Source: Chiloscyllium plagiosum (taxonomy: Eukaryota). From it: 64,000 nucleotides of DNA. The notes below the pieces were generated by a model that did not search any database, was not told the DNA's origin, and was given only the letters and a program-made list of their open reading frames with translations. This document shows positions 1 to 55,545 of this stretch, piece by piece. Where the stretch lies: contig NC_057718.1 in the NCBI RefSeq assembly GCF_004010195.1, forward strand, positions 43,585,970 through 43,649,969, written 5' to 3'. Position 1 is the stretch's first letter. The number at the start of each line of letters is the position of its first letter. Made by a program: the position numbers and the translations under genes.

Positions 1-1249
1 ATATTTTTGTCTGTGCTTCCCAGAATAATTTAATGGTGCCCTTCCCCTTCTCCTACTCTATATCGGTCACCCTGTTGCCTCCAGCAACTGAGGCCAAGGA
101 GTGTGTGCTTGTACCTGTGTAGGAGATTCTCAACAGGTCGAGTCCCCAGAGGACACCTGCCAAAATCTTCAAAGTCACCAGCACATACAAGTCAGTGGGC
201 TTCCTCATCTCACGCTGCACCTAGATGTCGAACACACCTGATACATTTGGTGGCACTCGTTGTTCAATTATTGTATATAATCTGCACTGTTCTAAGTACC
301 TATTCGCATGCACTATTCTGACATCTGCTGTCATCTTTTTTACACCAGTCAGAGCAGAAAAGGTTCCCAGATGTGAAAGATGTGGATCATCTCCCACCAT
401 GAAAGTTTGTGATGTTTTACAATCACCGCACCTTTCTACCTCTTTATAATCAGGAAAAATGGGGAACTAGAGATTGTCTTCCTCAGCAGGACCCCATCTA
501 CCTATAAACTGGGGATTGGAGTCAAGAGCTCCAGATTACTCTCAGGGACACTGATGTTAACAATAATATCTCAGGAAGGAACCAGGGGCTGGGACATTCA
601 ATCAGTCAACCCTGCACACGCATCACCTGGGAGCAATGGCAAAATCTCTCATGGATCTACAGGCTCTCGGAGGGAAAGGTTTATCCGTGTCTGGGTCTCT
701 CAAAGCAGTGCTAGAAAATCAAAGGGTGTAAGGTTAGCAATGACCGCATTATAATGTCACAATATCAGAACTATGGAGTGGAGTGAAGGGAATAGACTTA
801 AATCTCATAATGGCAGAGCAGTGGATATGTCAATGAGATTACTCAGCATTGCAGAGTTACAGGAAATATTCATTGCATGCTACATCATTGCAGGGATAAT
901 AGGAGGGCAAGCCTATGCAACCAGGCTAATACCTAGACTTGAGCTGCCTGCAGCCTTGACAATACTATGGACAGACCCCAGAAACCCTCTGTTTATGTAT
1001 GATCCACTCCCTTCAAATGACCATGGTCTGTCCCTTAGATTGCATTTGCATGATCTCCCTGATTGATTGACTAGGCTTATTTTATTTGTCTTCCAGGACT
1101 GACTATGCCTCAATCCTCACTCTGAATTTGTGTCATTCATAGACTTAAACTGTATGAACTGCCTGATTGACAGTAGCCACTCCATCCACCCCCACCCTGC
1201 CATGTCAACTAGAAATGGCCCAGACCTTGGGCTGACTGTGTGTCTGTGA

Positions 1250-2004
1250 GTCGAAGAGTCTGATGCAGGAAAAGCACAACTGGTCAGACAGCATCGAGGA
1301 GCAGGACAGTCAATGTTTCAAGCATAAGCTCCTCCTCAAGAATGAGGGGGTGGCCCAAGGGGGGCTGAGAGAGAAATGGGAAGGGGGCGGGGCTAGGGGA
1401 AGGTAGCTGGGAATGCAATTGATAGATGAAGGTAGGGGTGAAGGTGATAGTTGGAGAAGAGAGTGGAGGGGAGGGTATGCCCGAAACGTCGATTCTCCTG
1501 TTCCCTGGATGCTGCCTGACCTGCTGCGCTTTTCCAGCAACACATTTCCAGCTCTGATCTCCAGCATCTGCAGACCTCACTTTCTCCTCCTAGGAAGGAA
1601 GATGGACAGGTAGGACAGTTCAAGAGGTCAGTGCCAAGATGAAAGATTGAATCTGGATAAGGTGGGTGGGGTGTGGGGGGAGGAGGAATGGGGAAACTGG
1701 TGAAACTCTTGAATTGTCCTTCCTGTCCATCTTCCTTCTGACCTGTCAGCTCCACCCTCCTCTCTGACCTATCACCTTCATCCCCACAGTCATCTACCAA
1801 TCACATTCCCAGCTACCTTCCCCCCCGGCCCGCCCCTCTCCTGTTTATCTCTCAGTCCCTTGGGCCACCCCTTTGTTCCTGATCAAGCACTTACACTTGA
1901 AGCATTGACTCACCTGCTCTTCAGATACTGCCTGACCGGTTCTGCTGTTCCAGGACCACACTCTTTGACTCTGATCTCCAGCATCTGTAGTCCTCACTTT
2001 CTCC
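1250..2004. mobile_element. Penelope-like 3'-end (pLTR) fold-back composite; a younger fragment is nested at ~1471-1590
   Basis: Inverted arms (~1250-1470 versus ~1760-1975) of the GGAGAAAGTGAGGACTGCAGATGCTGGAG family; flanked by ctgtgtg(t/a)ctgtga at 1236-1249 and 2005-2018. Confidence 0.75.
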
Positions 2005-3265
2005 CTGTGTGACTGTGACCCTGACTGATTGGATTCTACCTATGCCCACTCACCATGCTTCACTTTTCCCATTCTAATTCAACATTGTGTCTTTTAACAA
2101 AATCTACCTCCCCATTCCCTATTGCCACTTTACTGTTCCCTAAGCCACTAGTTGCTGTCTTGCCTTCAGCTCTAAATAGCCTCTGTGAGGTGGAAACTGT
2201 TGGCTGATCTTGTACGCTAAATTGTCTTCCTGAAAGAGAAACTGGTGTGATGCATTCCCGAGTTGTGTTCTCTGATAGCCCAGGGACACATCCTGCCTTT
2301 GTCCTCTTTCACACACCCATTGCAGCTGACGAGTTTACAACAAAAGTGAAAACAACAAAAATTGACAATGTTTTGGTAGAGGCAGTTGAAACAAAGAAAT
2401 CACCAAAATTAGACAAAGATCAAGTCACCAGGTACATACACACATGCTATCTGCAGCCAGGTTTCTGAAGTGTTGAGTATTTCCATTCTGCAGAATTATG
2501 AAGGCAAAGTTTATTTCAGCGAGTTGTGCAATTATTGAGATGAAAATGAATGCAGATAGGCTTCATACCACTCAATGGTGAAAAAAATCAACTTACCTTT
2601 TTGAAAAAGGAGAATCTACTTGCTAAAATCCAACTTGACGGTGAAATCTGATTTTTGGACTCTCACCTGACTGATTATTTCTGCCATTATTCTCGTCGCT
2701 TAAGGGAGGGGAAAGTCAAGCTTAGTGTTTATATTCGCAGATCCCAAGATGCCAAATGCTTTGCCAACCACTTTTTTGTTATGTTCTGCTACCTTCAAAG
2801 ATCAACACTTATGCAACGCCAGATTCCTGCACAATCTTTAGATCTGTGTCATTAGGTCTACCCCTGCCAAAAATGCATCATCTGATACTTAGTTTTCTTA
2901 ACTTCCATCTGCTGTTTGCCTTTCTATTCTGCTAACCTCTCCGTGTCATGATAGAGGTGGTTCATAACTCTCTCTATTTGCTGCATAGGGCAAAAATGAG
3001 AGCAGAGATGTTGTCCCATCTTCCCCCTAATGTAAGAGTCCAGGGCAAACTTGCCTGTGCTTTGTTTACTTGCCCTTCAGCCATTTTACTGATGTTGAGT
3101 TGTTTGTTGCTTTGAGGTGGGTCTTCAGTCTCTTTAGGGAGGACATCCCTCCTCCAAGAAATGACAGCCAGTCTGAAAGCTGGTAGTTCTTCAAAGTTTG
3201 TAAGAAGACTTGTAGCTCGGGTGCTCGTTGTTGTGGTTCTGTTCGCCGAGCTGGGAATTTGTGTT

Positions 3266-3305
3266 GCAGACGTTTCATCCCCTGTCTAGGTGACATCCTC
3301 AGTGC
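3266..3305 (-). ncRNA. Second copy of the Penelope hammerhead motif
   Basis: Reverse complement reads GCA-CTGAGGA-T-GTCACC-TAGACA-GGGGAT-GAAA-CGTC-TGC. Confidence 0.7.
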
Positions 3306-4781
3306 TTGGGAGCCTCCTGTGAAGCGCTTCTGTGATCTTTCCTCCGGCATTTGTAGTGGTTTGAATCTGCCTCTTCCGGTTGTCTGTTCCAGCTGTCCGT
3401 TGCAGTGGCCGATATATTGGGTCCAGGTCGAAGTGCTTATTGATTGAATCTGTGGATGAGTGTTATGCCTCTAGGAATTCCCTGGCTGTTCTCTGTTTGG
3501 CTTGTCCTATAATAGTAGTGTTGTCCCAGTCGAATTCATATTGCTTGTCATCTGCGTGTGTGGCTACTAAGGATAGCTGGTCGTGTCGTTTCGTGGCTAG
3601 TTGGTGTTCATGGATGCGGATCGTTAGCTGTCTTCCTGTTTGCCCTATGTAGTGTTTTGTGCAGTCCTTGCATGGGATCCTGTACACTACATTGGTTTTG
3701 CTCATGCTGGGTATCGGGTCCTTCATTCTGGTGAGTTGGTGTCTAAGAGTGGCTGTTGGTTTGTGTGCTGTTATGAGTCCTAGTGGTCGCAGTAATCTGG
3801 CTGTCAGTTCGGAAATGCTCTTGATGTATGGCAGTGTGGCTAGTCCTTTGGGTTGTGGCATGTCCTCGTTCCATTGTCTTTCCCTTAGGCATCTGTTGAT
3901 GAAATTGCGCGGGTATCTGTTTCTGGCGAATACATTGTATAGGTGTTCTTCTTCCTCTTTTTGCAGTTCTGGTGTACTGCAGTGTGTTGTGGCCCTTTTG
4001 AATAGTGTCTTGATGCAACTATTTTGTGTGTGTTGGGGTGGTTGCTTTCGTAGTTCAGGACTTGGTCTGTGTGTGTGGCTTTCCTGTATACCTTTGTGGT
4101 GAATTCTCCATTAGGTGTTCTCTGTACCATCATGTCTAGGAATGGGAGTTGGTTGTCCTTTTCTTCCTCTCTAGTCCTCTCTAGGACAACCAACTCCCAT
4201 TCCTAGACATGATGGTACAGAGAACACCTAACGGAGAATTCACCACAAAGGTATACAGGAAAGCCACACACACAGACCAAGTCCTAAACTATGAAAGCAA
4301 ACACCCCAACACACACAAAAGAAGTTGCATCAAGACACTATTCAAAAGGGCCACAACACACTGCGTGAAGATTTGTAGCTCGGGTGCTCGTTGTTGTGGT
4401 TCTGTTTGCCGAGCTGGGAATTTGTGTTGCAGATGTTTCGTCCCCTGTCTAGGTGACATTCTCAGTGCTTGGGAGCCTCCTGTGTAACGCTTCTGTGATG
4501 TTTCCTCCGACATTTATAGTGATTTGCATCTGCCAATGACAAGCAACATGAGTTCGAATGGGGCAACACTACTATTATAGGACATTCCAAACAGAGAACA
4601 GTTAGGGAATTCCTAGAGGCATGGCACTCATCCACAGATTCAATCAATAAGCACATTGACCTGGACCCAATATACCGGCCACTGCAGTGGACAGCTGGAA
4701 CTGACAACCAGAAGCGACAGATTCAAACCACTACAAATGCCGGAGGAAAGATCACAGAAGCGCTTCACAGGAGGCTCCCAA

Positions 4782-4821
4782 GCACTGAGGATGTCACCTA
4801 GACAGGGGACGAAACGTCTGC
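4782..4821 (+). ncRNA. Minimal type I hammerhead ribozyme motif of a Penelope-like element
   Basis: GCA-CTGAGGA-T-GTCACC(TAGACA)GGGGAC-GAAA-CG-TC-TGC: CUGAnGA and GAAA boxes, stem II, palindromic ACGT stem III, UH site ending at 4818, 3-bp stem I. Confidence 0.75.
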
Positions 4822-5779
4822 AACACAAATTCCCAGCTCGGCGAACAGAACCACAACAGCTGGTAGTTCTCTTGTCCCAGCACTGCAAGTTGAGCAATGG
4901 TTATTTGCGCTATGCCAGGTTATTCCTGCCGCAGGGAAAATCCCAGTAATAACTGGGAGGAAGAGGTTAAGAATTGGGGCAAACAGGGATGGATTGTTGA
5001 TGGGCATAGCACCACTGGCAGCTACCAAACATTACCTCCTCCACTGCTTGTCAACTGCAAGACTCCAATGTGTTTACTGAAAGGCAATTCTGGTTTCTAG
5101 TTGAACAGACAGACATTAATGTTCCAAACAATGTTACTCCTGCACTTAGAGTATTGTGATTCAGTAAGTTTTATTTTCAAGATTACTGCTATCAAAACAA
5201 GCAATGTTGTTTAACAACTTGCAAAGGAAGAAGGAAAGCTGATAGAATTGGAACATCAATTGACCAAGATCTAATTGAATGATACAGTCGGCTTTGGGGT
5301 GGAAGTATCCATTGGTACTCAATGTTTCAAAACTTCTTGTCACTTGATTTTCTAACCCGTAGGTTTGGCCAATAGTGTAACATGAACTGCTGTTAGTTTT
5401 GGTCAAGGGACAGGATATCATGGTTAATAGTTTAACCATGGATGATTTAATTCCTCTCCACCCTTCCCCCATTACAAATTCTGATGCTAAAGAACTACCT
5501 TTATTCATTTACAGATGTAGTCCAGATCAATCTTCATCCATGATTCTCATAGAATCTAGAATCCAAGTATTGTACTGATACTTGTATTCTTGTAAGAGCA
5601 TGGATTTGTTTGTATATCTTACAAATCAATAAACTAATTGCTGAAATGTTTCGATCAATTGAAACAGAAAACCACACAAAGCCATTAGTCTTGAGCATCA
5701 TTAAAGGTTACCTGTTACTGAATGTATAGATATACCTCCTATCATACAAGATGATAAAATCAATGCATGACATTTTAAT

Positions 5780-6345
5780 AAGCCACCTTGCTGAAATGCC
5801 AACATTTCTGACCTGGGCTAGTTTCCACATTCCAAACAAACTCAGTGCAAACTTGAGGAACAATACACCATTTTCTGCTTTGGCTCTGTATAGCCTCTAT
5901 TCATAATATTACATTCCATAACTTCAGAACCTGAGTGCAGGATGTCAGTTCTCATATGTTCTTCCTACCCCCTCTGCACCTCCACAGCTTCTGTCTTATT
6001 TATTTAGTTCTCAGTAGAGAACTCATTCTCTTACTTGCACAGCTTAATTTACATCCATTTTACCTCTCTCTTTCTCTTTCACTACCACTGACAATGTTTT
6101 TGCAATGGATCTCCACACTACCTCTCCCCTCCACCCTTGCCTCTGGAGAAGCAGCCCTGAAATGCAACATAGCTCACTCCTGTCCCTATTTTCTATGTAT
6201 CTCTGAGAAATGTATATACATCAAGACATTTTCCAACCCCTTTCAGTCCTGAAGAAGATTCAGATCAGACTTGAAGCATTAACTCTGTTTTTGTGTCAGA
6301 TGCTACCAGACTTGTTGAGTTTCTTCAACATTTTCTGTATTTGTT
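5780..6345 (+). mobile_element. Old Penelope-like 3' fragment
   Basis: tgcaaacttgaggaacaatacaccattttc reads CKLEEQYTIF, like the PLE endonuclease tail RKLEEQHLIFRLG. It is followed by ctgaagaag... and the cagatgct..agacttgttgagtttct tail. Boundaries approximate. Confidence 0.6.
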
Positions 6346-7388
6346 TGTGATAAATCAATTGTTTATTTATTAATTTTGTATGTCTAAAGTGCAGAATCTC
6401 AAGAAATAGGCCTCTGATTGGTTGCCAAGGAATTTTAGCCAAGATTTCATTGTTTGTGTTAATGAAGGGCATATACATTCAGTTAACATTGTTCAGAACA
6501 CCTTAGCCTCCTCATAGATGATCTTGAGAAGTATGTAGGGAAGACATTTGAATATTATATAAGCTACTAATCTACTCAAGATGCAGCAGTTTATTTTTAG
6601 TCAATGTAATGTATTGTGTGTATAGAATATAATTTGTTCAAGTAAAGCTCTTGTGGTGCAGTGATAGAATCTCTACTTCTGAGCCAAGAGACCCAGGTTT
6701 GGGTCCTGCCTGCTCCAGAGGTGTTGACTAGTGTTTATTTGTAAAATATGTAATTTGTTCACTATATCAAAATATGAGGCATTATCATAAGTAAGCTTTT
6801 ACAATTGACTTCAATGAAAATAAAAATCAAAAGAGATGTAATTTGGACTGTCAACCAGATATCACTCACTTTATCTGCAAAGTCATGATTTACTTTGTTG
6901 AGTTTGCAAATGCTTTATTGGTTGTTTTATACTGCAATAACAAAGTTTTGCTCTAAAGGTATCAAAACCTGCAGGATATTTTAGACCTCAGCGAATGTCT
7001 TTGTCTTGGACTCTCTCCCTCAATCAATAATAAACATTAAGATTTAATTAAATGAAGAGAAAGAATGAAACATTATAGAGGATTTTTTTATATTTGCATG
7101 GATGAAATATTTGTGAAAAGTTGGAATTACCATTCTTGAGTATATACTTTCCTTATTTATGCCTTCAATTTCATAGTTTAACATTGTTTTCTTTGTTTCT
7201 ATTTTCATTTGCTGAAATACTTTCTGTTTCATGTGAATGGAGTTTTGTGGTCTTTCTCTTCCTACCGTTCATTTCTCTTTCTCTCTATTCTCCTTTCTGG
7301 CTGACATTTTTGTTAGAAATATAGAAAAACAAATCATTGTAGCTATCATCTGCTTCCACTCATCCCAGCATATTTTTAATCTCTTTAG

Positions 7389-7584
7389 ATTGGAGGCCAG
7401 TGTAAATGCAAGAGATGCATGTCTGGCAGACAGTGTAATCAGTGCCAGGATGGATTCTATAATCTGCGCTTCTCAGACCCTGATGGCTGCATTCCTTGTA
7501 ACTGTAATACCTTTGGGACAGTGAATGGAGATATTACCTGTCACCAAAATTCAGGTCAATGCAAGTGCAAAGCAAATGTTATCA
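7389..7584 (+). CDS. USH2A: USH2A exon 12 homolog, open and intact (laminin-EGF); whether it is still translated is unknown
   Basis: ctctttag|ATT...ATC A|gtaggt; 196 nt. Translates IGGQCKCKRCMSGRQCNQCQDGFYNLRFSDPDGCIPCNCNTFGTVNGDITCHQNSGQCKCKANVI versus recalled human IGGQCNCKRHVSGRQCNQCQNGFYNLQELDPDGCSPCNCNTSGTVDGDITCHQNSGQCKCKANVI. Confidence 0.93.
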
Positions 7585-9540
7585 GTAGGTGAAATATAAG
7601 ATTTTGTGTATCATATCCTGCTGGTTATGAATTTGACCCTAAGTTTGTCAGTCACTAACCATTCTTATGAAGAAATTAAACAAATGTTTGCTAAACATCT
7701 CAGACACATATGAAAGGTTATAATTATCTGATGTATTCTGAACACACAAGTCATCTATATAATTGCCTTTAAAGTCCAGTTTAAAGTACTATTTCAAACG
7801 ATTTGCATGCGGTGAGGTACTTTATGATAAATCTTTTCATTCTGTTACTATATGCCTTTGAACAATTCTTATGAAACGCAAGAGACTTATCTTTACTTCA
7901 AAGATCATACGTATGTGGTTAGTTATCAAGGGCCAGATAATTTTAATTTTGCAATTCACTGCCAAGTTGATTATAACAAACTACCATATTCTCTGTTATT
8001 TATCATGTTTTTGTGATACTTGCTTTTATGTTTTGCGGTTCCCACTGGTATTTTCAGAAATTAGATTTGATTAAAGCAATTTGTTACCTGCAACTTACTG
8101 GAAGGTAGTAACAGCTACATGGGGCAAAATTTATCAAGTGCTCAAAATACATTGTGTGTATAATGCACTTTGAAATTTTGATGTATGGGAATATTATGCA
8201 GGGAGCATTCCTGATAAAGTGTGCTTTGCATTGTAGCAGAACGTGTCCCAGTCCATACATATGGATCAAAAAAATTTACCATTTCATTTGCATAGCAGTT
8301 AGCTTTAAATGCTGTTTCTAAAATAGTCCCTGATTAAAGCTAATGTGGATTGTAATGAACAACATTAAGCAACAGTGCAGAGATGTGAAGAAGACTTATG
8401 AAATGTGATCGGGTTTGATGTTGAAGGATATTTGATAACCTTTTCTGCTACACTGGAAAATCTTTATTGCTATTATTATTTCTACCTTTGTTATCAAGCT
8501 GAGCTCCAGAAATAGAATTTGATAAAGCTAGTAATGGCTGAATTATATTCTTGGTGATCCACTGCTGTTTTGAACCTTATATCCATTATCATCATTGTTG
8601 TTTCCTTGTTATTCATAAAAAGAACTTCATAACACCATTACATTTTGAAGTATGTGGTACAAGAGTGGTGCACAAGAGGTTGATTTTTACTACAGTTAAT
8701 ATGGTTGTACAATTGTGTTGTAAATGAATTATTCAATACAAAGAAATTTGTAAAGTAGGTCACTTATCTAGAATAAAAAGTGACAGGTAGAGATTGTGCC
8801 TTAAATGCCTAATGGATCTGGAAACCTCTCCCTACTTTCTTGTTAACCCTGTAAGAAACTGAACGCGATGCCCTGTAGGCTTTGCTCAGTAACGCTGGAG
8901 ACAGATTAGCTGTCATGAACATGCATGACAAATTCAAATAAGTGCTATGTATATTTTTAGAAATGATGAGGTGAATCCCTCTAGACTGATTTTAATAGTT
9001 TGGAATGAGTCATAACTCTTTTCACAATACAGTTACTTTAAAATTTGTAGTGTTGCTGGTACTTTTATTTTTCTTACTGAAATTAAATGTTATGCCTTAG
9101 GTAAGTCATCAATCATAGTGCAAGCAGTTGCTTTCTGCTGAACTTCTTACTGCATTTTTATTCTAGTGTAATATATTATTTCACATACCATGTTTTCAAG
9201 TGTAACAGATTTTTGCATTTTTGAGATAATGGAAATAAATTTAACCTGTTGGATGTCTATACTAACTGAAGGCAATGTTAATCAGATGCATAGGAAACTA
9301 CACTTAAAATTGTAACTTATGTTTTTTTTACTGTTTCATTTCTGTTGGTAGATTCACAGATATAATTCTAAAAGGTTCCTAGAATAACAGTTGCTCCATT
9401 TAAAACATTTTTGAGAATATATGCAATTAATATTTGAACATTAAAAATTTATACCGCCAAAATTCACATATGAGCAAGCATGATTGATTTCTAATTTTCA
9501 TTTTTATTATTTATTGTTTTGCATTTTAAACTTCTTTCAG

Positions 9541-10186
9541 GAATAAAATATCAACAGTGCAACTTTGGCATCAAACTACCGAACAGTTCACATTCAGACA
9601 AATGTGAACCAGGTAACTGCAATATTAATGGTTCTGCAAACCAGATCTGTACTCCCTTGCAGTGGACAGTGTAACTGCAAGGCAAACATCAAAGGATTTC
9701 AATGTGACACTTGCATTGGGTAATTTCTGTGGACTCGATGCAGGTGACTGTGAGGCTTGTGAGTGTGACTCAGCAGTATCAGTCCTTGGATTCATAAATG
9801 ACTCGAAAACAGGTCAGCGTGTTTGCAAACCTAACATTGAACTACAGTGGTGTGACATTTGCCGAGATGGCTATTACAATCTATGTTCAAGTAACTCCTT
9901 GGCCTGTTTACCTTGAAATTGTGACAAAGCAGGTACACTAAATAGATCAAGTGGTTGTGATAAATCCACAAGCCAATGTCTATGTAAGACCAATGTTACA
10001 GATCTACATTGTGACCAGTGTATTCCTCATACCTTTAACATGAGCTCATCTAATTTGAAAGCAGTCATTGGTGTAACTGTGATTCTATAGGGGCAGTGGA
10101 AGGAATGGTCTATGACCAAAAAGCAGCAGCCAGTGTTTTTTGCCAACTGAATTTCCATGGAAGACAGGGTGACCAGTGTAGACCAG
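9541..10186 (+). pseudogene. USH2A: USH2A exon 13 remnant (laminin-EGF repeats), disabled
   Basis: Acceptor ctttcag ends at 9540. Peptide blocks CNFGIK..CEPGNCNINGSANQIC / SGQCNCKANIKGFQCDTC / NFCGLDAGDCEACECD..CLP*NCDKAGTLN..HGRQGDQCRP. Frameshifts near 9660 (+1), 9721 (+1), 10061 (-1) and 10122-10140; TGA at 9914-9916; donor reads ttaagt. 646 nt versus recalled 642. Confidence 0.93.
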
Positions 10187-10384
10187 TTAAGTGCAAATAT
10201 AGTATTGCAGATGGATCAGTTTGCTGATAAAGTGATTGATACATTGAATTTAAGACCTAATATAATGAGTGAGTGAAAAATTCTGGTACTGAGGCAATGT
10301 TTTTTGCAGACCTCTTTCAGATGTGAATACAGTAATCTCCAGTGTTCTTGGATTACTGATAAGACGTAATATATATAAAAAAAA

Positions 10385-11990
10385 ACAAATACTGCAGATA
10401 CTGGAGATCTGAAATTGGAATTAAAAATGCTGAAAAGATTCAACAGACCAGGCAGCATCTTTGGAGAGAAAGAGAGTTCATGTTTTGGATTGATGGCCTT
10501 TGGAGCAGAGTTGAAGGAAGATAGAAATATAAGAGATTTTAGAATAGCAAAGGTGGAAGGGACAAGAGACAAAAAGGAGAAGATGTGTACTAAATTGGAG
10601 ACCAAGCGATACTAAATAACAAAAGATATCACAATCCAATAGTCAAAGAGAGTGCCCTATGGATGTAGCAAAGGAACAATGGTGTCCAAGTGAGGTGTGT
10701 CTTGCAACATTTAGAAAATCTGAATGCAAGATGAAGGGATAAAATGATCAGACAAGACCAACCCAAAAAACAAAAAGAGAGAAAATTAAAAGGACAAAAT
10801 GGAGCCAGAGTTTATGATCTAGCTGTTGAACATAATGTTGAGTTCAGAGGCTGTAGAGTGCCAAGTCAAAAGATAAGGTGCTGTTCCTTGAACTTGCATT
10901 GACATTCAGTGGAACACCATAGACAAAAAGGTTTTGAGAGCAAGATTTAGAATGAAAGTGATAAACATCATATACTTGGGATCTTGCTCACAACTGAATG
11001 AAATGTTCGATGGAGCAGTCCCGGAGTCTATGCTTGGTTACCTCAGTGTGGAAAGGTGCTCATCATGAACAGCAAATACAGTATAATAATTGAAAGGAAT
11101 GCAAGAACATTGCAGTTTCACTTGGACATGTGTTTTGAACCTTGGACAATGAGACGGGAGGAAGGTGTTGATCTTTTACTCTTGCATGGAAAGGTGCTGT
11201 AGGAAAGAGATGGGATTTTATAGGTTACTGAAGAGTGGACTACGATGTCATGGAGGGAATGCTGAATCAAGAAGGTGGATGAAAATGTGCTTGTATCATG
11301 CTGAGGTTAGTAGAAAATGCTGCTTTGAACACAGGCTGTGAGGTGGAGATTGAGAATAAGGTCACCCCTATTATGGTTTGAGAAGAAAGAAGAGTGTCAA
11401 GACTAAAAGTGCATGGAATGGATTTGACATGATGGAAGGTACTGCCAATCATATTGGGTAAGAATCCTCTGCTGAGGGAAAAGAAGAGATATTGGAAGAG
11501 CTGATGCAGGAGGTCGCATTATTGAGACAGATGCTGCAGATGTAGAGAAATAAGGAGAATGAAATGGAGCCATTACAAGAAGCAGATTGTAAGGAAATAT
11601 AGTCTGTGGCATTTTAATGAACATTTTATAGATCACTCAGTTCCAGAAATGGAGACAAGAAGTTGAGGTAAGGAAGAGTCTGAGATGGACCAGCTGAAGT
11701 TGAGGGAAGGATGTAAATTGACAACAAAGCCAACCAAAGTCTCCACTTCATAGTTAGAGCAAGAGTTGGAACTGATTAAGTCATCAATGTACAGAAAAGG
11801 GGGATGAGAGAGGGGGCTGAATATAGGGCTGGAATAATGAATGTTCCATATATCCATAAAAATAAAGCAGACATTTCTGCAATTCATGCAGGTACCTAGT
11901 GCAGTGTTTTTATTTGGAGGCAGTTAAAGGAATAAATCCACCAGATATGAGATTAATGACGGTTCTGGTCACAATGTCTTGATATATGGT
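10385..11990 (-). mobile_element. Decayed Penelope-like element (RT to 3' end)
   Basis: ORF 11633-11887 has FLYIDD..NLHPSLNFSWSISDSSLP (PLE RT C-terminus). Terminal aaatactgcagatactggagatctgaaa at ~10387. Confidence 0.75.
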
Positions 11991-12656
11991 AGCGGGCTTT
12001 TTCCTCAATATTTGTTTGTACAAGTAAATTATATAACTTTTGAATATGTGTAACTTGTGTGAAAATGCTGAATATGTTTTATAATTGCTATTTTTGATTT
12101 CTACTAAAGTATCCAATGTAATTTAAATTCATAAATTTCCTTGTCATAAATGCACCCAACCACAGTTAAGTGATGTGTCAACCGAATCCAGAAATATGTG
12201 CACATTCAGGAATATACAGTTTAAGGACAATTCTGGAGCATTCTGCCTGACTTGCACATTGGTGAACAAAACAAATATTATACTGCTAAGCAACCCAATC
12301 TCTGTTAATAATGCACATTGTAACTATGCAAAGTGTTAAAAGTAATAGCCAAAATAAATAGCTAACTAATTCAAGGGCAATGGCTGAAGGGAATGGCGTA
12401 TAAGCATATATTAAGGTTTGGCACTGGTGCTATCAGCACAATAGTCTCTTTCAATCCTGCATGACATAACTATTCTGTTCAGCATGAAATTTGCATTCAT
12501 TTGGCCTGTCAACTGGGTGCCATTTATATATGGAATGCTATCTGCAGTGTGCACGAGGTCATTTTTTTTGTGATAAGTATTACTTTTTTAGGCAGTCTGT
12601 TCAGCTCAAAGATGACTTGGCTCTACTTCCACTCCTATGTCTTATGGTCTTATAAT

Positions 12657-22904: not shown

Positions 22905-23072
22905 GTTTTGTACATCCTTCAGTTAATTTCACTGATTGTTTGCCATGTGAGTACCATCTAATAGGATCAAGGCATCAGATTTGTTACAGGACAATCGAGA
23001 CCCTTCAGTGAGTGGGATACACTGTGACCAGAGCAAGGACCAATAATTTGCTTTTAACCCTGAAAATGGAAG
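22905..23072 (+). pseudogene. USH2A: USH2A exon 14 remnant, disabled
   Basis: ttttag|GT TTT. GFVHPSVNFTDCLPCEYHLIGSRHQIC/TGQ/RDPSVSGIHCDQSKDQ*FAFNPENG. Two ~8-nt deletions (168 nt versus recalled 184), TAA at 23044-23046, donor reads gcacgt. Confidence 0.88.
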
Positions 23073-24261
23073 GCACGTTGCTGTTTATTTTGAGTCATAT
23101 TTTCCAAGCGTGATTTTGTGGTTTGCAATGAAAACAAAATGAGGCTGATTATTAAATTTAGCTCAAAATGTGCAGAAATATGGCCCTTCAGGTTTCCAAC
23201 ATCAGGTTTCAGGCCAAAATCACCTTGCTTCTGCAACCAGTGAGTTGGCAGATCAGACCTGTAGAAAGGCAGGAAATCAGAATGATTCTTTAAGGGTCAC
23301 TGGTTAGACTGTTCAAAATCTTGTGTAACAGGACCTACGTGCTGCAACATATTTTGTCAAATTGTATATGAAAGTATTTTTAAGTGCCCTATAACTGGAT
23401 TAGTCTGTGGTTTGTATATTTGAAGAGCCCTCCTATCCATTTGTTTTTTTGTTGTTGTTGAAACAAGTTTTTTTTTAATTTTGGAATTAACTTCGCCCAA
23501 AGCAATATGGTGTAATCGTTCACAGTACATTGCCTCAGCCTGTAAACTATTGAGTAGACCACTGGGTATTGCTATTTTTTTTAATGTGGGAACACAAATT
23601 GGTACTTTCATGCTTTGTCTTCTCCTGGTCAGTATGTATAATACTCAGTGTCATACTGTGAATTAAAATGCATTGCCTGGTTAGACCTCTTGCTTCTAAG
23701 AAGCAGCTTGGTTAAAAACTGATTGCATAGATGAAATGGTGGAGAACTTTACAAATAACTAATATATTCAAGTTTTGACAGATCACTGTTTATAACATCC
23801 ATTTGCAAAGTGAATCAATCCCGTACGAATAAAAAATGAACTTTTTAAACTGATTGCTCTGGATGTTTTTCTTCACCTACTGAGTAAATGTAATCAGATT
23901 TCTTTGTTTTAATATTACAGATCATTTATCTTGAAAAATAATTATAAAAATAATGTTTCAAAGGTACCTTTTAACCACAGAAAAATTATTCACATTTTTC
24001 TGGTGTTCCACAATGCCAATAATTTAGCGATCAGTCAGCAATGTTACAGAAAATTAGCATATATAATCTGATTATTTGACTGCAGGTTTCATTATAGTTT
24101 CAAATTGCATCATTTAGGAAAAGAAAAATATAGACAAGCTCTAATATATTTTGATGGTATAGTAAGTTGATATTTGCACTCCCGAGGATGAAAATTAACA
24201 AGCTTTATTACACATTATGAAATACAAGCAAGAGAGAACATCTTCTGCGAGCCTACAGACA

Positions 24262-26103: not shown

Positions 26104-26261
26104 CTGCCAACTATGCAATTGTAACCCTGCAGGCAGTGTTAATAGCACTTGCCACCAAACAAATGGAGCATGTTTCTGTAAGCAGTTTGTAACTGGTTTA
26201 AAATGTGATGTGTGCAATATGAGCCACTTGGATGTGAACAGCACATTTGGCTGCAGTAAAA
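26104..26261 (+). pseudogene. USH2A: USH2A exon 15 remnant; frame open but donor destroyed
   Basis: tttacag|C TGC. CQLCNCNPAGSVNSTCHQTNGACFCKQFVTGLKCDVCNMSHLDVNSTFGCSK. 158 nt (6 fewer than recalled 164); donor reads ataagt at 26262. Confidence 0.92.
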
Positions 26262-28447: not shown

Positions 28448-28604
28448 TTCCAAATCAGCAACCTATATCAACAGCGTGTTTAGAATTTGACTGCAGTTAA
28501 TATATCATGGAGTCTACCTGATGCACCAAACTCTAATAAGCTCACATATACATTGTGCAGAGATGGAGTACAAATTCATTCAGTTCAGGATACATATCCA
28601 TTTG
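28448..28604 (+). pseudogene. USH2A: USH2A exon 16 remnant (start of first FN3), disabled
   Basis: tatag|TT CCA. PNQQPIST/V*NLTAVNISWSLPDAPNSNKLTYTLCRDGVQIHSVQDTYPF. 2-nt deletion near 28475, TAG at 28481-28483, donor reads ctatat. Confidence 0.88.
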
Positions 28605-29355: not shown

Positions 29356-29719
29356 CATCATGTGTAGGATTGCAACAATTTAGTTTACTTTCTTAATATT
29401 AAACGTTAGAAAGGAAATGTTTTGAATGTAAATACAACTTGCAACAGTTGCAAAACCAGTTGAAATATTTTTATTGCAAATGATTTAAATAAACGAGTAT
29501 ATAACTTTTCTTTTTTAAAACTCTCAAAAGCTTCTGTGATACTGGTTTGGCATCTTACACAAGCCACTGTTATTAAATTGTGGCAAGTAATGTTCATGGT
29601 AGCACAAGGAGCAGTGTTGTTAGATATTGCTGGTTATCTTACTGGATTACTTCAATAGAGTATTGTTGGTTTTGTTTGGATCAATATCAGTTTGGTTAAA
29701 CTGACACCCTCATCAAATA

Positions 29720-29942
29720 GGAGAAAGTGAGGACTGCAGATGCTGGAGATTAGAGCTGAAAATGTGTTGCTGGAAAAGCGCAGCAGGTCAGGCAGCATCC
29801 AAGGAGCAGGAGAATCGACGTTTCGGGCATAAGCCCTTCNNNNNNNNNNNNNNNNNNNNNNNNNNNNNNNNNNNNNNNGTCGATTCTCCTGCTCCTTGGA
29901 TGCTGCCTGACCTGCTGCGCTTTTCCAGGAACACATTTTCAA
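29720..29942. mobile_element. Penelope-derived palindromic insert inside USH2A exon 17 (centre falls in an assembly gap)
   Basis: Near-perfect inverted arms; 12-bp TSD cctcatcaaata at 29708-29719 and 29943-29954. Confidence 0.9.
29840..29878. other. Assembly gap (N run) at the apex of a palindrome
   Basis: Run of N between inverted arms. Confidence 1.
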
Positions 29943-30639
29943 CCTCATCAAATACTTCAGGACCTATTGAGATATACATATTGAATCTACCACTCCAGGC
30001 ATCCTGTGTGTTAGGTGCATTATAAAGTCTTCCAGACATTTGTGACTTTGAATGATTTGATACCTTATAAAGGTACAATTTCACTGTCCAGGCTTGTACT
30101 AAGGGTGGGAACGAAATTGGAAACAAGCCTATTGTGGAAATAACTGAAACAGGCCCTACCTAAAGAACTGGGACACCAAACAATTAAAATGTTCAGCTCT
30201 ACAGAGCTCTTAATTGAACAGACTGCTTCTCCAGAACCTAATGGTAACCTATTTTCTAGCTTGCAAAGTCTAAGAGTATCATCATTAAATGAAAATGTTA
30301 AGCTTCACAAAGTGTGTGAAATGCTGAATTTGAACTAAAAGATTCAATTTATGTGAATTTTAATACTGATATTTAATTGAACTAATTCTTCAGACAATTT
30401 GTCTATCTCTGAAACTATAACAATGCTCAACATATACTTTTAAATGATAACATTATTGCAAACATTTTAGAGTTGGTACAACTTTTTACACTGATAACTT
30501 ATATATGTATATACTAGTTAATAGTGTTTTGACTATTGATTTTATGAATTCAAGATCAGGGCATTTCTTCAGGCCAAATAGGGTTACAAGACAGGGAGAT
30601 AATTGAATCAAGGTGGGATAAGCATATTGACGTAAAGAA

Positions 30640-41935: not shown

Positions 41936-43410
41936 ACTTGAAGATAACACAGGTGTAAGGGTGGATAAATCCTCAGGACCCAATCAGGTGTACCCTAGAA
42001 ATCTGTGGGAAATGAGGGAAGTGTGTGCTGGGCTTCTTGCTGAGATATTTGTGTCACCAATAGCCACAGCTATTGAGGTGCTGGAGTTTGGCTAATGTGG
42101 TGCCACTATTTAAGGAAGGTGGTAAGGAAAAGCAAGGAACCTTAGAACAGTGAGCCTGATATTTGCAGTGGGGAAGTTGTCAGAGGAAATCCTGAGGGAC
42201 AGGATTTATATGTATTTGGAAAGGCAAGGACTGATTAGGGATAGTCAGCAAAGTTTTGTGCATAGGAAATTGTGTCTCAGTAACTTGATTGAGGTTTTTG
42301 AACAAGTGACAAAGAGGATTGATGAGGGCAGAGCAGATGACCTGATCTATATGGACTTCAGTGAAGGGTCCGACAAGATTCCTCTTGGTTGACTAGTAAG
42401 CAAAGTTAGATCTCATGGAATACAGGGAGAACTAGCCATTTGGATAAAGAACTGGCTTGAAAGTAGAAGACAGAAGGTGGTGATGGAGGGTTGCTTTTCA
42501 GAGGGGAGGCCTGTGTCTGAAAATATCAGTGCTGGGTCCACAGCTTTTCATCATTTATATAAATGATTTGGATGTGAACATAAGAGGTATGATTGGTAAG
42601 CTTGCAGAAGACACCAAAATTAGAGGTCTTGTGGACAGAAATTTACCTCAGATTACAACAGAATCTTGATCAGATGGGCAACGGAGTTTAATTTAGATAA
42701 CCGTGGGGTGCTGCATTTTGGAAAGACAAATCAGGGCAGGACTTATGCACTTAATGGGAAGGTCCTGGAGAGTGTTGTTGAACAAAGAGACCATGGAGTG
42801 CAGGTTCATAGTTCCTTGAAATTAGATAGGATAGTGAAGAGGCATTTGGCATACTTTCCTTTCTTGGTTAGTGCATTGAGTATAGGGAGTTGGGAGGTCA
42901 TGTTGTGGCTGTACAGGACATTTAAAGGTTCAGAAAAGATTTACAAGGATGTTGCCAGGGTTGGAGGGTTTGGGCTATAGGGAGAGACTGAATACACTGG
43001 GGCTATTTTCCCTGGAGCTTCGGAGGCTGAAGGGTGATCTTATAGAGGTTTACAAAATTATGAAGGGCATGGATAGGCTAAATAAACAAGGTCTTTTCCC
43101 TGGGGTGGACGAGTCCAAAACTGGAGGGCATCGGTTTAGGGTAAGAGGGAAAAAATTTAAAATAGACCTAAGGGGCAACTTTTTCAAGCAGAGATTGGTG
43201 CATGTATGGAATGAACTGCCAGAGGAAGTGGTGGAGGCTGGTATAATTGCAACATTTAAAAGGTACCTGGATGGGTATATGAATAGGACGAGTTTAGAGG
43301 GATACGAGACAAATGCTGGTAAATGGGACTAGATTTATCTCGGATATCTGATTGGCATGGGTGAGTTGGACTGAAGCTTCTGTTTCCATGCTGTACATCT
43401 TTATGACTCT
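41936..43410 (+). mobile_element. CR1/HER1 LINE, 5'-truncated, decayed ORF2
   Basis: ORFs 42150-43332 (CLSNLIEVFEQVTKRIDEGRA..IYMDFS; GHRFRVRG..WNELPEEVVEAG); tail tatgactct. Confidence 0.93.
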
Positions 43411-46588: not shown

Positions 46589-46850
46589 AATAGAATGTTT
46601 ACGTTTTTTGTGATGTTTTTGCTAAATAATATCTGGTACGTGCAAGGCTAGTTGCAAATGCATATTTTCCACTTGCTATTTTTGTTAGATATGTTAGGCT
46701 AACCAGATTTAACTTATTGCATTTAACAGGAATCTGCATTTAATTCAGTAGTTGTAATTTGAGTAATGTCACCTTGAAAGTAGTGTTGAGGGGTAAATGG
46801 GAAGTGGTAAAATGTGCAAATATAAATTTCTAACCTAAATTTCTTCCGAG

Positions 46851-47125
46851 GAATAATAATTTAATATGAACTAAGCATGTGAGAATTCTTACAACCAGAT
46901 GGGTTGTATAATCCTCCTCAAAGATGCATTTTTCAAGACAGTGGATTCTTTAACCTTTAATCAAACTTAGAACCACGTTATGAAAATACATCAATTCCAC
47001 CACAGACTCATACAACGCTTACTAATTTAGCACCATTTACTGTGTATGAATTTCAAGTGCATGCAATTAATATGGCAGGCACTGCACTCTCTCTCAGTGG
47101 GTACCAGGATAAACTGCAGAAACTG
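46851..47125 (+). pseudogene. USH2A: USH2A exon 18 remnant (FN3), four stop codons
   Basis: ttccgag|GA ATA. GIII*YELSM*EFLQ..IFQDSGFFNL*SNLEPRYENTSIPPQTHTTLTNLAPFTVYEFQVHAINMAGTALS/QWVPG*TAET G|gttagt. Stops at 46862, 46880, 46958 and 47110; +2 slip in the CT run near 47090. Confidence 0.92.
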
Positions 47126-48670
47126 GTTAGTATTAACAAATTTTATCAACTGATTTACAGAATATATGAATACAATTGTAATTTGTCATTTATTTAGTAA
47201 TGCAGCAGTCAAATATTTTATTTGATTAATATGTTTGATTGTATAGTGCATAAAATGCAGTTGTATTTTTGATTCAGATAAACACATAGCCATGGTGAAT
47301 CAGATGTTAATCACAGGCCAGTTAGAGTACAAAGGCAGGTCAATTTTAACAAACTTTTTCTATTCTTTTCAATTAAATATTCTCTACCTTCATGGATAAC
47401 AAAAAATATGGAAATGCTACTTAATTTATTACTCGAATGCAAAGAGCAATTCAAAACAGTTTAACAAATAAGTTCTGTTTTTGGAAGAAGGTGTAAAACT
47501 AGCTGTCAACTCACTTTGAGCTTGTTTTGTTATTGGCGCAGAGCAATTTTGCAACAATTATCCATTTTGTAATGAAAATAGAATTAACTTTCTTAACTTC
47601 TGTTAATAGTTCAATAATCCAGAGTAGAAACTGCTCCAATGTATCAGCATCATGTTGGAGATGAATGGGAACCAACATTTCACAGTGGCCGTTTCCTGTG
47701 GCCTGCTACAGGGTCCTTCTCACCTGATTGGAAGGCAAACTTGTCAATCAGGCTAACATCCAGGCAAGTGGTCTGCCAATAATAGAAGAAGCATGTTATT
47801 GCTGCAGCATGTGGTTCTTTTTGTGTTTCTTGTCTGATACTCTGCCTTGTCTATGTTTCCTATCCCATTAACCAAAGATGCTGGAAGGAGAAAATGATTT
47901 GAGAGAATAAAGAGCAAAGAAGAAAGAAGGTAAGATAGAAGAGCAACCAGCAAGACAGAAGAAAATAATTAGCCGAAGGAAAAGGAGTCCAGAGACCGTT
48001 CCACTACTTTTATTTGGTCCATGAGCAATACCATAGGAAGACAACTAGGAGTTAGTTATCATTGTTTATATTAAATATGTTTATACTCTGCTTTGAAAAT
48101 TAATTTATTTATTTATCTATGTGTCAACTTATATGTCTAGAATATTTTAGCATGGTTCATAGATCTAGCACAAGAAAATTCAATAATCGTGCTGCAATAT
48201 CATCTTTAATAATACATAGGTTCAATTTGAAAAGGTAAAATTATTCTTTAATGGAGAGTATTGATCGCCAATAGATGCTACTTAAGCAACAATGAACATG
48301 AAAAGGAGTGTATTATAGACTTTTCTTGACAGGTTTCTGAACTGCAACATCCTTGGTAAAGTACACTTGTTCCCCTGAGTAAATTGCTAGATTGACAAGT
48401 TTACATATAAACTAGTTTTAAATTGGGTAAAAGTCAAAGAGGATGAATGCACTGTTGAAAATGAAATGGAAAATCTCATGTTGTTACTGTCAACTTTAAA
48501 ATTACTGTCAAACAGATTTTCAGACAATGACAAGGTGTAATTTAAATGTGTACATTTTCCTTTCTTTTCACTGTTTTTTACAGACAGATATTTTCTGCAA
48601 TTTTTTTCTTGCTTTATCATTTGATGTGCCAGAAACTTCTTTTAAGTTGACATGTCTTTAATCCTTTTAG

Positions 48671-48835
48671 CACCCTTGTTTATGGCTGCACTCAGTTCTC
48701 TCACTCATCATCTGTTTTAAATATCACAAAGGTGCAACTAAGCAACAATTGGGTAAGAGGAGAAGTGATTGGTATATTATCAACATTGATGATAAACAGG
48801 CCACTAATCAATTTGCACTACTGATAATTTCATGA
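48671..48835 (+). pseudogene. USH2A: USH2A exon 19 remnant, frameshifted, donor not recognisable
   Basis: ccttttag|CA CCC. APLFMAA/SVLSL/SVLNIT..NNWVRGEVIG/YIINI versus recalled human APVFMIPPSVFPLSSYSLNISW..NVTRGKVVGYDINM. The 3' end is approximate. Confidence 0.8.
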
Positions 48836-51800
48836 CGAAGTTTCTTCTTCATAGGTTTTTAGTATTAATTACTTCAATAGTTTTGATCTGTGAAAAATAT
48901 TTACCAATGTACCTACTTTGTTTTACTTTATTACAATGTTTTGTTAATTTTGGCATATTCAAGCTGACAAATGTTAATCATGGGCAGTGGGTTATCTTCA
49001 ACTCAATTTCAGCACTCAAGTCTGTTATGATTGTATAGATTATAATCAAATGAAGAGAAGTTAACTTTGGATTTCTCCTTATTTGACCATAATGGTATTT
49101 TGTTTGAGAAAAGGATATACTTACCAGCTCAGTGATTTCTCAACTATTTACGCACTATGACTATGAAAGAAACAATAGGACAGGTTTTCTTGAGTTCAAG
49201 AAAGGAAGGTTAGCTTTATGATGCTCAAACAAATCCAAGTTAAATAATTAATTGTAGACTTTCTCTCTTCCAGCATCCACCGGAATCTCAAGCAAACACA
49301 ATACAGGTTATGGAGCGGGAAGGATACAGAGGTCAAATTACAGTCCATTTTTAAAAAAAGTGAAAGAAAATACAGTCAGTAGTCTGGTCACTCTGCTGGC
49401 TTCAGGTGAAATAGGTTGGTTTTCTGTTTTCAATACAAAGTTAATTAAAACTGAAGATGAATTAATTTGGAGATACAATTGAGGAATTGAGGTTTTTTTC
49501 TTTAAATATCTCTGCCTGAAGCAGATAGAAAGAGGAAGTCAAGCAACAGCATTTCTGGCCCAAAAGCTTGCAAGTTGGGTGGAGAGACAGCAAGGGAGAA
49601 AACAAAACGTACTTTAGCTTCTCAGGTGCTTATTTTGTTCTCCTGAGAAGGATATGCTTCAAAAACACAAAGGAGTTGGTTAGTTTTTTCACTGCTCTCT
49701 CCAACTGACCAGAAGTTCAAACGTGATTGCTCATTTTAATTGTATCGCAATGTGATCAGGTCCAGGAATTGCTGCTCTCAGTCAAATTTTCATTGTATGA
49801 GTGATTAGCTTTAATGGCCTGCCTCCAGCATTGTATGCTTGATTGCCATATGTTCCTTGTTCATGAGACAGGAGGTGGCAGCCCTTTTAACTTCCAGGGA
49901 TTCGTTATCTTTTGGTGGGATGCACACTTGCTGTCTCATACTCAGTGGGGTTGTATTTTAAAAGTATTTTTGTTTTGTTTGAAAAGGCTACTTCTTATCA
50001 GTTCAGTTCATGTTTCCAGCCGATAGATTAAAAATCACAGTTTAGCACAGTTGACATGTGCAACTGACATGGCTCATTGCAGAGAGACACCCCTTTTTTT
50101 CAAGACAAACAGGGAACTTCAGAATTACAAATTTTAGTACCTAGATAGTGACACTTCATTTATTGTGCACTCAAGTTCACTTGGAACTGAATTCACTTAA
50201 TTTAGAAGCCATGAAGTTGGCAGGTCGGAGAGATAAATCCCATCCATCTGAGCTGCATCTTAATATCTGTCTCCTAAATAGAGTGTATTTAAACAATTAT
50301 TGTAGCATGTTAACCTCTATGTAGTTCTTTGTGGTGGTAAATATACTTATCAATATTATGTGAAGTAGTCCTGTACCTGAATATGTACATTATAAATTCA
50401 TACATTGCAGCTTTAATGGAAACTACCCACTTAAAATGGTAGAATTTTAAACACCTGCTTACCAGTGATAGCATGGTAATGCTTCAGCTATAGTTCACAG
50501 AAACCTCTTTAATCTAACTAACATTACAGGATCATTTTAATCTAACTCCACTTGTTCACTTCAACCATATCTTTAGGAAGACTATTGGCATTGATTACTT
50601 TTGCTCTGGCTTTCTTCAAGTATCCATCAATTCATGTCTCCAACCATCTGATCTTACCCTCTTCCTCTTTTGTTTTTACTTTCAATTACTTCTTTCATTG
50701 TTGTCAAGAGAAGGCTATTGAGATGTTGTTTCTGAGTTGGATGTGTGGCTATCTCTCTCTGTCTCTCTAGGTATAATGAGCAACTTTTTGATTTCCTGAA
50801 CTACTGTTAATCTAACTCAATTATTTGGCTTTCTGGCCATGCAGCTTACTGAGCGCTCTGCACCATATGTGAGTTTCAGTAGGAGTTGTTTTCCTGGTAC
50901 CTTCTTTCCTCAGAGCCCAAGTCTTAGAACTGTAGAATGGAGCACTGTATACTAGTGACTGCACTGGACCTTTATACAACTATATGCCAATACTTTGGAC
51001 TTCTAGATTCCAGTTAGGTCATCAGGTGCAGCTATCTATAGCTCATTCAATCTGGATTTTGTTCTTTAGCATAACTTTAACAAGGGACTTAAAGTTTTCC
51101 AGTGCCTTTTGTCATTGTTTCCAATCTCGACTTTACCCTTGACACTTAAAGCTATAAAGTCAATCTTTTGCCTTATTTATGGTCAGTCAAAAGACTCACT
51201 GTGTCTTTGCGCCTGATCAATTTAACTTGGTTAGTTTCCTGCTAGTTAGATTTATTTTGAATTGATTCTATCTTTATCCATGCATTGCAAACTGAAAAAT
51301 TCAAATCAACCAAATGTTCCACCTGGGCCCTATTGCCTTTGCTCTTAACCTGCAGTAAGTTCAGTTAAGCAGGCAGCATATACACTGATCTGATGTCAGC
51401 AACGCAATGTTTAAATAAACAAATTGATGCCATTATTGGACTCCAGCTGCTATGTTATCTTGACCTGCACAAACTGTTACATCTTTCCCACTGAAGCCAG
51501 ACAAGGATCACAAACAAAAACAGTACTATAAGTATTCTTTATTTTTGATGAGATAGGGAAGGAAGTGCTGGGGTCTATTTCAACAGACACACCATTTCCA
51601 ACTCTCCAGAGTGAAATCTTTCCAAAGCCTTGGTGCTGAATGCTGTGAAAGACCATTTAAATGTCCACAAGCAGGCCAATAGGTACTTCCAGTTCACTCT
51701 GTTTCTGTTCCAAACTGGATGCCCGCTCTCAGTATATTATGAAGTCTAACAGCTGGTATTGCTGATGTTCTCTTTCTGCTATGGTGTGTAAGCCTCAAAG

Positions 51801-53302: not shown

Positions 53303-53841
53303 AGGACATTGGTAGGCCACTTTTGGAATATTGCATTCAATTCTGGTCTCCCTGCTAGAGGAAAGATGTTGTTAAAATCAAAGATTTGCAGAAAAGATTT
53401 ATAAAGATGTTGCCGGGTTTGGAGGGTTTGCGTTATTGGAGAGCTGGGGCTATTTTCCATGGAGCATTGAAAGTCTTATTAAAAGTACTTTAAATCATGG
53501 GGGGCATGGTTAGGGAGAATAGCCAAGGTTTCTTTCCCAGCGCAAGGGACTCCAAAACTAGAGGCCATAGGTTTAGAGTGAGAGGGGAAAAATTTAAAAG
53601 GGACCTAAAGGGCAACTTTTTCACACAGAGGGTGGAGCATGTGTGGAATGAGCTGCCAGAGGAAGTGATGGAGGCTGGTACAATTACAACATTTTCAAGG
53701 CGTGGGTACATGAATCGGAAGGGCTTAGAAGGATATGGGCCAAATGCTGGCAAGTGGGACTGAATTAATTTAGGAAATCTTGTTGGCAGGTACGGGTTAG
53801 ATCAAATGGTTTGCTTCTGTGCTGTACAGCTCTATGACTCT
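53303..53841 (+). mobile_element. CR1/HER1 LINE 3' fragment
   Basis: RPLLEYCIQFWSP; ORF 53497-53763 TRGHRFRVRGEKFKRDL..WNELP. Confidence 0.92.
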
Positions 53842-54012
53842 GTAAAGGTCTTGAGATGCAGTGATAATATCATTAGTTACTTCACCTCTCAGCTGCTCTT
53901 GAGATGTATCCAAACAGCATGATCAACAATAATTATAGAGCCACCATTTTTTACCTCTTCCTCAAAGCATAAGGTAAAGTAATACTTAATGGTGTAGGAT
54001 TATAACACTAAA

Positions 54013-55058: not shown

Positions 55059-55077
55059 ATATTTATTTTGTATACAG

Positions 55078-55545
55078 GTGTTTCATAAAGTAACAGTCAA
55101 AGAGAGATCCTAAACAGTGACAGATTTGAAGCCCTACAGAACTTATAACTTCACAATCTCTGTTGGCAATTGGATTGAATGTGTTTAGATTAGATTACTT
55201 ACTGTGTGGAAACAGGCCCTTCGGCCCAACAAGTCCACACTGCCCCGCCGAAGCGCAACCCACCCATACCCCCTACATTTACCCTTTACCTAACACTATG
55301 GGCAATTTAGCATGGCCAATTCACCTGACCTGCACATCTTTGGACTGTGGGAGGAAACCGGAGCACTCGGAGGAAACCCACGCAGACACGGGGAGAACGT
55401 GCAAACTCCACACAGTCAGTCGCCTGAGGCGGGAATTGAACCCAGGTCTCTGGAGCTGTGAAGCAGCAGTGCTAACCACTGTGCCACCATGCTGCCCATT
55501 AATGTGTTACAAGTGAAATTAGCTCAGGCCAAACATTAGCTGCAG
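55078..55545 (+). pseudogene. USH2A: USH2A exon 20 remnant, split by an HE1 SINE
   Basis: tatacag|GTG. VFHKVTVKERS*TVTDLKPYRTYNFTISVGNWIECV (55078-55185) + TSEISSGQTLAA (55509-55545) = 145 nt, equal to the recalled human exon 20. TAA at 55111-55113; donor reads atatt. Confidence 0.92.
55186..55497 (-). mobile_element. HE1-type V-SINE inserted in USH2A exon 20
   Basis: Full head gggcagcatggtggcacagtggttagc, B box gggttcaattccc, (taatc)n tail. TSD att(g)aatgtgtt at 55174-55185 and 55498-55508. Confidence 0.93.

Follow-up and report, generated by a model that had tools for sequence, protein, structure and literature searches.

The stretch of DNA considered here, 64,000 nucleotides (nt) of Chiloscyllium plagiosum (assembly GCF_004010195.1, contig NC_057718.1, positions 43,585,970 to 43,649,969 of the forward strand; the window in what follows), contains the remains of USH2A, the deaf-blindness gene that codes for usherin. 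USH2A no longer codes at this locus, since exons 13-20 are broken, but exon 12 has decayed at about one quarter of the rate found in most of the broken neighboring exons. We lean slightly towards the explanation that exon 12 holds an old DNA-level element which would have outlived the protein and which likely serves as an enhancer for the ESRRG block. An initial annotation, made from the letters of the stretch, had singled out exon 12 as preserved beside a ruined exon 13; the observation is real and stronger than was first argued, on a different ground, namely that the spared exon is the old conservation peak of the gene. Published sources are cited below by PubMed Central (PMC) identifier.

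The exon and the signals at its borders are as follows, in positions of the window:

7389..7584, plus strand: USH2A exon 12 relic, the spared element; 3' part of laminin-EGF module LE3 and 5' part of LE4
7387..7388, plus strand: exon 12 acceptor AG, intact
7585..7592, plus strand: exon 12 donor, GT at 7585-7586, followed by the read-through stop, TGA at 7590-7592
7675..7680, plus strand: ATTAAA hexamer, at chance level in an AT-rich intron

The module names LE3 and LE4 are those of PMC7317166. Exon 12 is 196 nt long and its peptide matches the laminin-EGF family (Pfam PF00053); the best protein matches are vertebrate usherins, and the exon is colinear with the exons that follow, as expected of an orthologue of USH2A exon 12. 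Eight more usherin exons lie downstream, in order, up to about position 55250 of the window; a tblastn search of positions 1-7388 found no usherin exon upstream of exon 12, exons 1-11 lying outside the window. The exon numbering is fixed by the relic that follows exon 12, which at 646 nt (642 + 4 nt) fits the 642-nt exon 13 of USH2A (PMC8353187); the remaining numbers are assigned by order. The exon 12 peptide is identical at 60-61 of 65 residues to six chondrichthyan usherins, and at 55-56 of 65 to macaque (55), chicken (56), and sturgeon, which places the animal among the cartilaginous fishes.

A frameshift-aware alignment against 23 bony-vertebrate and six chondrichthyan usherins confirms that exon 12 carries neither stop nor indel, that both splice dinucleotides are intact, and that all ten invariant cysteines are present, as the initial annotation had stated. 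It also bears out the extra cysteine noted there, although the substitution, given as H to C, is R to C when read against sharks. The ruin of exon 13 is equally borne out, with five frameshifts (at about 9657, 9718, 10055-64, 10120, and 10137) and a TGA at 9914. Relative to the shark consensus, exon 12 has four changes: R>C (7416), V>M (7419), S>I (7491), and S>F (7512). The final base of the exon (7584) is A; with exon 13 spliced on, the codon would read arginine, while 39 of 40 aligned usherins have glycine there. The donor region is therefore not wholly ancestral.

In the intact usherins of Callorhinchus (P0065), Mustelus (P0174), Heterodontus (P0175), Cetorhinus (P0176), Scyliorhinus (P0177), and Pristiophorus (P0178), exons 12-20 are colinear with the relic; unlike these six, exons 13-20 of the Chiloscyllium relic bear frameshifts, stops, or dead splice sites. 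Decay was counted over residues invariant in this chondrichthyan set, with at least five of the six sequences present. Of the 63 such residues in exon 12, 4 have changed; the eight decayed blocks together have 81 changed out of 347 (Fisher p = 0.0008, or some 0.008 once ten blocks are allowed for); when exon 15, a second spared exon, is left in the background pool (82 of 382 altered), p is 0.002. The eight decayed blocks are uniform among themselves (chi-square p = 0.96), and exon 13, 2 kb from exon 12, decays at the rate common to them. A neutral codon simulation gives 12-16 expected changes in exon 12 at 0.09-0.13, and at most four occurred in 0-2 of the 1500 runs made under each setting; the settings are assumed (kappa 4, CpG x8, inferred ancestral codons), and the decayed blocks were fitted at about 0.12 substitutions per site.

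The exon that is spared in Chiloscyllium is also exceptional in intact genes. Across 40 sequences, 65-residue windows matching the identity of exon 12 number 0 of 387-388 in each of the shark-shark, shark-mammal, shark-sauropsid, and shark-non-teleost ray-fin comparisons; the windows overlap and hence are not independent. Exon 12 identity is 0.99 between sharks and 0.85 between sharks and mammals, the next window in the latter comparison standing at 0.75 and the median at 0.56. Windows equal to or above exon 12 number 171 of 387 within amphibians, 184 of 388 within teleosts, and 71 of 369 within invertebrates. In these alignments the excess conservation follows exon borders and not protein-module borders: with cysteines set aside, sharks and amniotes agree at 0.78-0.92 within exon 12, against 0.50 for the part of LE3 that exon 11 encodes and 0.52 for the part of LE4 that exon 13 encodes.

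The distribution of the peak among lineages was followed with a distance ratio, exon 12 over the other laminin-EGF repeats, in a hand-picked set of 101 usherins from which redundant isoforms and near relatives had been removed. All 48 amniotes have ratios of 0.14-0.54, all four non-teleost ray-fins 0.21-0.26, all 13 non-euteleost teleosts 0.35-0.55, and two salamanders and two early-branching frogs 0.35-0.48; the value for Callorhinchus has an unreliable background because its gene model is without the exons just upstream. Fourteen other frogs have ratios of 0.48-0.75, a weak peak in a protein that is kept. The ratio reaches 0.81-1.08 in seven of eight euteleosts (one could not be scored) and 0.66-1.00 in five of five invertebrates. 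The exon 12 peak is thus absent from all seven scorable euteleost usherins (P0146, P0110, P0072, P0073, P0078, P0080, and P0081), although the protein is kept. A constraint that stops at exon borders, is common to jawed vertebrates, and has lapsed in a clade whose usherin persists would resemble a conserved non-coding element.

A published neighborhood offers a setting for such an element. In human, USH2A lies within the ESRRG;RRP15;SPATA17;TGFB2;USH2A cluster of 72 ultraconserved non-coding elements, of which about 49-50 are kept in zebrafish (49-0-1) and 10-24 in four percomorphs (10-0-0 to 22-1-1; PMC3436827). The lineage pattern of exon 12 parallels this better retention in zebrafish than in percomorphs, and the human neighborhood is the same; the elements of the cluster are non-coding by definition, whereas exon 12 is coding, and it is for human that the ESRRG neighborhood is established.

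Exon 12 of jawed vertebrates may thus have carried two codes, one for protein and one regulatory. The death of USH2A would have removed the protein code, admitting a few radical amino-acid changes, while the regulatory code would still limit change to roughly one quarter of the neutral rate; as an enhancer, the element would bind transcription factors (TFs) and act at long range on ESRRG. The steps of this proposal differ in strength. Some constraint on exon 12 at the level of DNA or RNA is probable, judging from the sequence comparisons. For a constraint of the enhancer type the balance tips just in favor, and ESRRG as the target of the putative element is a possibility that falls a little short of being favored. 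The initial annotation had offered, as one of two options, DNA-level constraint in the form of an exon-embedded enhancer serving the ESRRG landscape. Its first part draws support from the exon-bounded excess, the loss in euteleosts, the radical changes described next, and the published ESRRG-USH2A cluster; the enhancer and the role for ESRRG are what we infer from these.

The four changes in exon 12 suggest how the protein code has fared. Private changes in the exon number four on this branch versus two on five intact shark branches (p = 0.009, equal branches assumed). Their BLOSUM scores are -3, +1, -2, and -2, with a mean of -1.5; the mean in the decayed blocks is -1.27 in Chiloscyllium versus +0.24 in intact lineages. 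Two of the four fit CpG decay, provided that the inferred ancestral codons are correct. On this evidence the protein constraint on exon 12 looks released in this shark. The argument is weakened by the intact sharks, whose two private exon 12 changes are both radical too, one of them R to C in Scyliorhinus. The initial annotation had taken the unpaired cysteine of Chiloscyllium as slightly favoring constraint on DNA; by itself it is a weak sign, since the intact Scyliorhinus usherin also has R to C there. That record (P0177) has, through its own R-to-C change, an extra cysteine within exon 12.

Few but radical changes would also fit a short neutral period, as expected if the gene was lost in stages: a shorter protein that included exon 12, either a 5' fragment or a form with exon 12 spliced to the membrane tail, may have persisted through most of the period after the 3' exons died and been lost late, leaving exon 12 less time to decay. 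The intact splice dinucleotides of exon 12 agree with such a staggered loss. It leaves unexplained, however, the exon-bounded excess in intact genes, the loss of the peak in euteleosts, and the sparing of exon 15. A form that skips exons 13-14 would moreover be out of frame (642 + 184 nt). We regard staggered loss as unlikely.

The second spared exon is:

26104..26261, plus strand: exon 15 relic, with a 6-nt in-frame deletion and the donor GT lost

Exon 15 keeps 34 of 35 shark-invariant residues (p = 0.0016) and is identical to Cetorhinus at 48 of 52. Its donor has lost the G, so preservation here does not require splicing.

The other option of the initial annotation was a short usherin, netrin-like and secreted, consisting of LamNT and laminin-EGF repeats and made by reading through the exon 12 donor to the TGA at 7590 and ending at the ATTAAA at 7675. 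In favor of such a product, the frame is open and the acceptor intact; the stop and the hexamer are both present as described, the one two codons past the exon border and the other 83 nt beyond it. The product, however, would end inside a laminin-EGF module, after cysteine 5 of the 8 in LE4 and with an extra cysteine besides, so that the module would have no complete set of paired cysteines, and the changes in exon 12 hit columns that are invariant in six of six chondrichthyans. The hexamer is at chance level, AATAAA or ATTAAA occurring in 76 of 267 (28%) of the 90-nt windows of 6750-9500. The data do not back the truncated protein, and we regard it as highly improbable.

Conservation bounded by an exon, together with kept splice sites, would also fit an element that acts in RNA, either in the regulation of splicing or as an exon of an overlapping non-coding transcript, and exons 12-13 and 12-14 are naturally co-skipped in human cells (PMC8353187). 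A structured non-coding RNA at exon 12 received no support: the window has no Rfam match, and the exon folds no better than shuffles (z-scores of +0.49 for one strand and +0.28 for the other). Once the gene is dead, furthermore, nothing would be left for a regulator of USH2A splicing to do. An RNA-level element is accordingly rated very unlikely.

Several observations weigh against an element in DNA, and most of them also bear on the explanation that exon 12 has no present function, in which the conservation in intact genes is at the level of protein (ligand binding) and the low decay in Chiloscyllium is chance or a local mutational cold spot. Exon 12 encodes loop b of LE4, which is reported to be important for collagen IV binding, as affected by G713R in LE4 (PMC7317166); this gives a protein reason for the conservation in intact genes. 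Heterogeneity among the ten blocks is modest (p = 0.027), and exon 12 was chosen as the outlier. The missing lesions are not significant (23 lesions in 2163 nt give a probability of 0.12 of finding none in 196 nt), nor are the ten retained cysteines alone (p = 0.09), and both counts were rejected as proof of sparing. Exon 15 is equally spared without the old excess, its distance ratios being mostly 0.6-1.3 (its identity among birds is 0.98); local sparing may therefore have further causes. Within mammals and within sauropsids exon 12 does not rank first, 21 and 6 of 387 windows, respectively, being equal to or above it, and the 5' step at its border is not visible among sharks alone, where identity in the exon-11 part is 0.95. 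All of the conservation evidence is read at the amino-acid level; the translated flanks of five fish-like records, compared by eye as translations and not as DNA, have no likeness to the shark flanks. An exon without present function is hard to reconcile with the uniformity of the eight decayed blocks and the ordinary decay of exon 13 at 2 kb. It would also require that the most conserved window of 388 be, by luck, one of the two spared, and that protein-level selection stop at both exon borders, which is not expected. This explanation is distinctly unlikely.

A catalog of candidate human exonic enhancers, published in 2026, was consulted for USH2A, the transcript identifier being checked by its 642-nt row. 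The accessible part of that catalog lists 14 USH2A exons as candidates and omits human exon 12, which also counts against the element proposed here and fits an exon without function; exons 13 (642 nt) and 16 (159 nt, by index), decayed in Chiloscyllium, are listed, and exon 15 likewise is not (PMC13216554). The catalog is built on TF peaks from chromatin immunoprecipitation sequencing and requires at least ten ReMap TFs (PMC13216554); at that threshold an embryonic enhancer could be missed. The accessible supplements of PMC4014394 contain no match for USH2A or for five identifiers searched alongside it. That exon 12 is an enhancer of ESRRG as old as jawed vertebrates, placed within the coding sequence of a neighbor and still active in humans, is a tentative proposal that we hold to be somewhat doubtful.

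The nearest precedent for an element in DNA is provided by the exonic remnants that bystander genes leave behind in regulatory blocks after the host gene itself is gone; an example is the ELP4 exon near PAX6, which is necessary but not sufficient for enhancer activity (Dong et al., PMC2831330). As in those remnants, a dead host gene has kept one or two exons, beside what would, as in human, be a developmental regulator; the remnant is better kept than the other exons of the host, and the orthologous exon is more conserved than the rest of the gene in intact genes; for exon 12 this is read at the protein level, and the exon is not top-ranked within mammals, frogs, or teleosts. Since exon 12 is free of lesions, it has not lost coding potential as a class I remnant of Dong et al. 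has, and would belong to their weaker class II; exon 15, with its mutated splice site, would be class I. The remnants of Dong et al. arose after the teleost whole-genome duplication, whereas exon 12 is exposed by gene loss, and USH2A is not among the 19 host genes in the accessible part of that study (PMC2831330), a further point against the element.

Two other classes are comparable. Coding exonic enhancers share with exon 12 the proposal of a second, regulatory code in a coding exon, but are defined by chromatin or reporter data, whereas the case for exon 12 is made from sequence (PMC3371700, PMC13216554). Frith's host-gene protein fossils are formerly coding DNA under non-coding constraint, as exon 12 would be; they span jawed vertebrates, while exon 12 still codes elsewhere and is a fossil in one shark lineage (PMC9004415). 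Exon 12 is best described as a new candidate exonic remnant, within a concept already established.

The surroundings of exon 12 have some features of their own. A 95-codon stop-free stretch in another plus-strand frame (7237-7521, plus strand) starts with an ATG in the intron and covers the first two thirds of exon 12, ending before the most conserved last third; the window has many similar stretches. A 35-nt piece of the intron preceding exon 12 (at about 6804-6841) matches several unrelated contigs of related organisms, probably as a short repeat of the dispersed kind. Of 24 sequencing runs listed, 20 contain the stretch; they come from three organisms, and no RNA run is listed among them, which says nothing on expression. 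When three contig runs of the two related organisms were compared with the upstream intron and with the beginning of exon 12, the matches were short unrelated pieces, and one RNA run, sampled to about 2 in 100, gave 0 reads there; this bears neither on divergence among the relatives nor on splicing. The interval 4859-12617 is without within-window repeats, as judged by a method blind to repeats absent from the window, and was not used as evidence; three other stretches of 6.7-8.5 kb are equally free.

The remaining relics of USH2A in the window are:

9541..10186, plus strand: exon 13 relic, with five frameshifts, TGA at 9914, and donor GT lost
22905..23072, plus strand: exon 14 relic, with a frameshifting deletion and TAA at 23044
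28448..28604 (approximate ends), plus strand: exon 16 relic, frameshifted
29520..30245 (approximate ends), plus strand: exon 17 relic, split in two by an inserted stretch, with stops and frameshifts
46851..47122, plus strand: exon 18 relic, with four stops and one frameshift
48669..48850 (approximate ends), plus strand: exon 19 relic, frameshifted
55077..55250 (approximate ends), plus strand: exon 20 relic, with stops

The donor of the exon 14 relic is GC (23073-23074, plus strand) instead of GT. Repeat-like insertions split exon 17 (at about 29630-29940), and others seem to break into exon 20 near its end (from about 55200 onward); they could be used for dating the loss of USH2A. The first 196 nt of the exon 18 relic (46851-47046) fold better than shuffles, with z-scores of -2.8 and -2.3 on the two strands, a signal in two of ten folds tried that is probably chance. 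Degraded retroelement reading frames lie in the introns at 3187-4946, 42126-46621, and 53494-54972; by their motifs they are reverse-transcriptase- and endonuclease-like.

No report of a spared USH2A exon was found in the literature searched, which covered USH2A in sharks or elasmobranchs and USH2A pseudogenes and had most subscription journals outside its reach. Telling a protein code from a second code within one exon normally takes a genome duplication; loss of USH2A gives the same separation, and the lineage that lost the gene singles out one candidate element of 196 nt. If the element is real, the dead shark USH2A would be a natural filter that exposes hidden elements across the gene, exon 15 being a second. 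Exon 13, which adjoins exon 12, is a target of exon-skipping therapy (PMC8353187), and in a case of renal agenesis USH2A was disrupted by a translocation for which an effect through ESRRG has been proposed (PMC2928268, PMC3033182). If exon 12 does hold an enhancer of ESRRG, ESRRG expression could change when the region of exons 12-13 is deleted in patients or edited in therapy.

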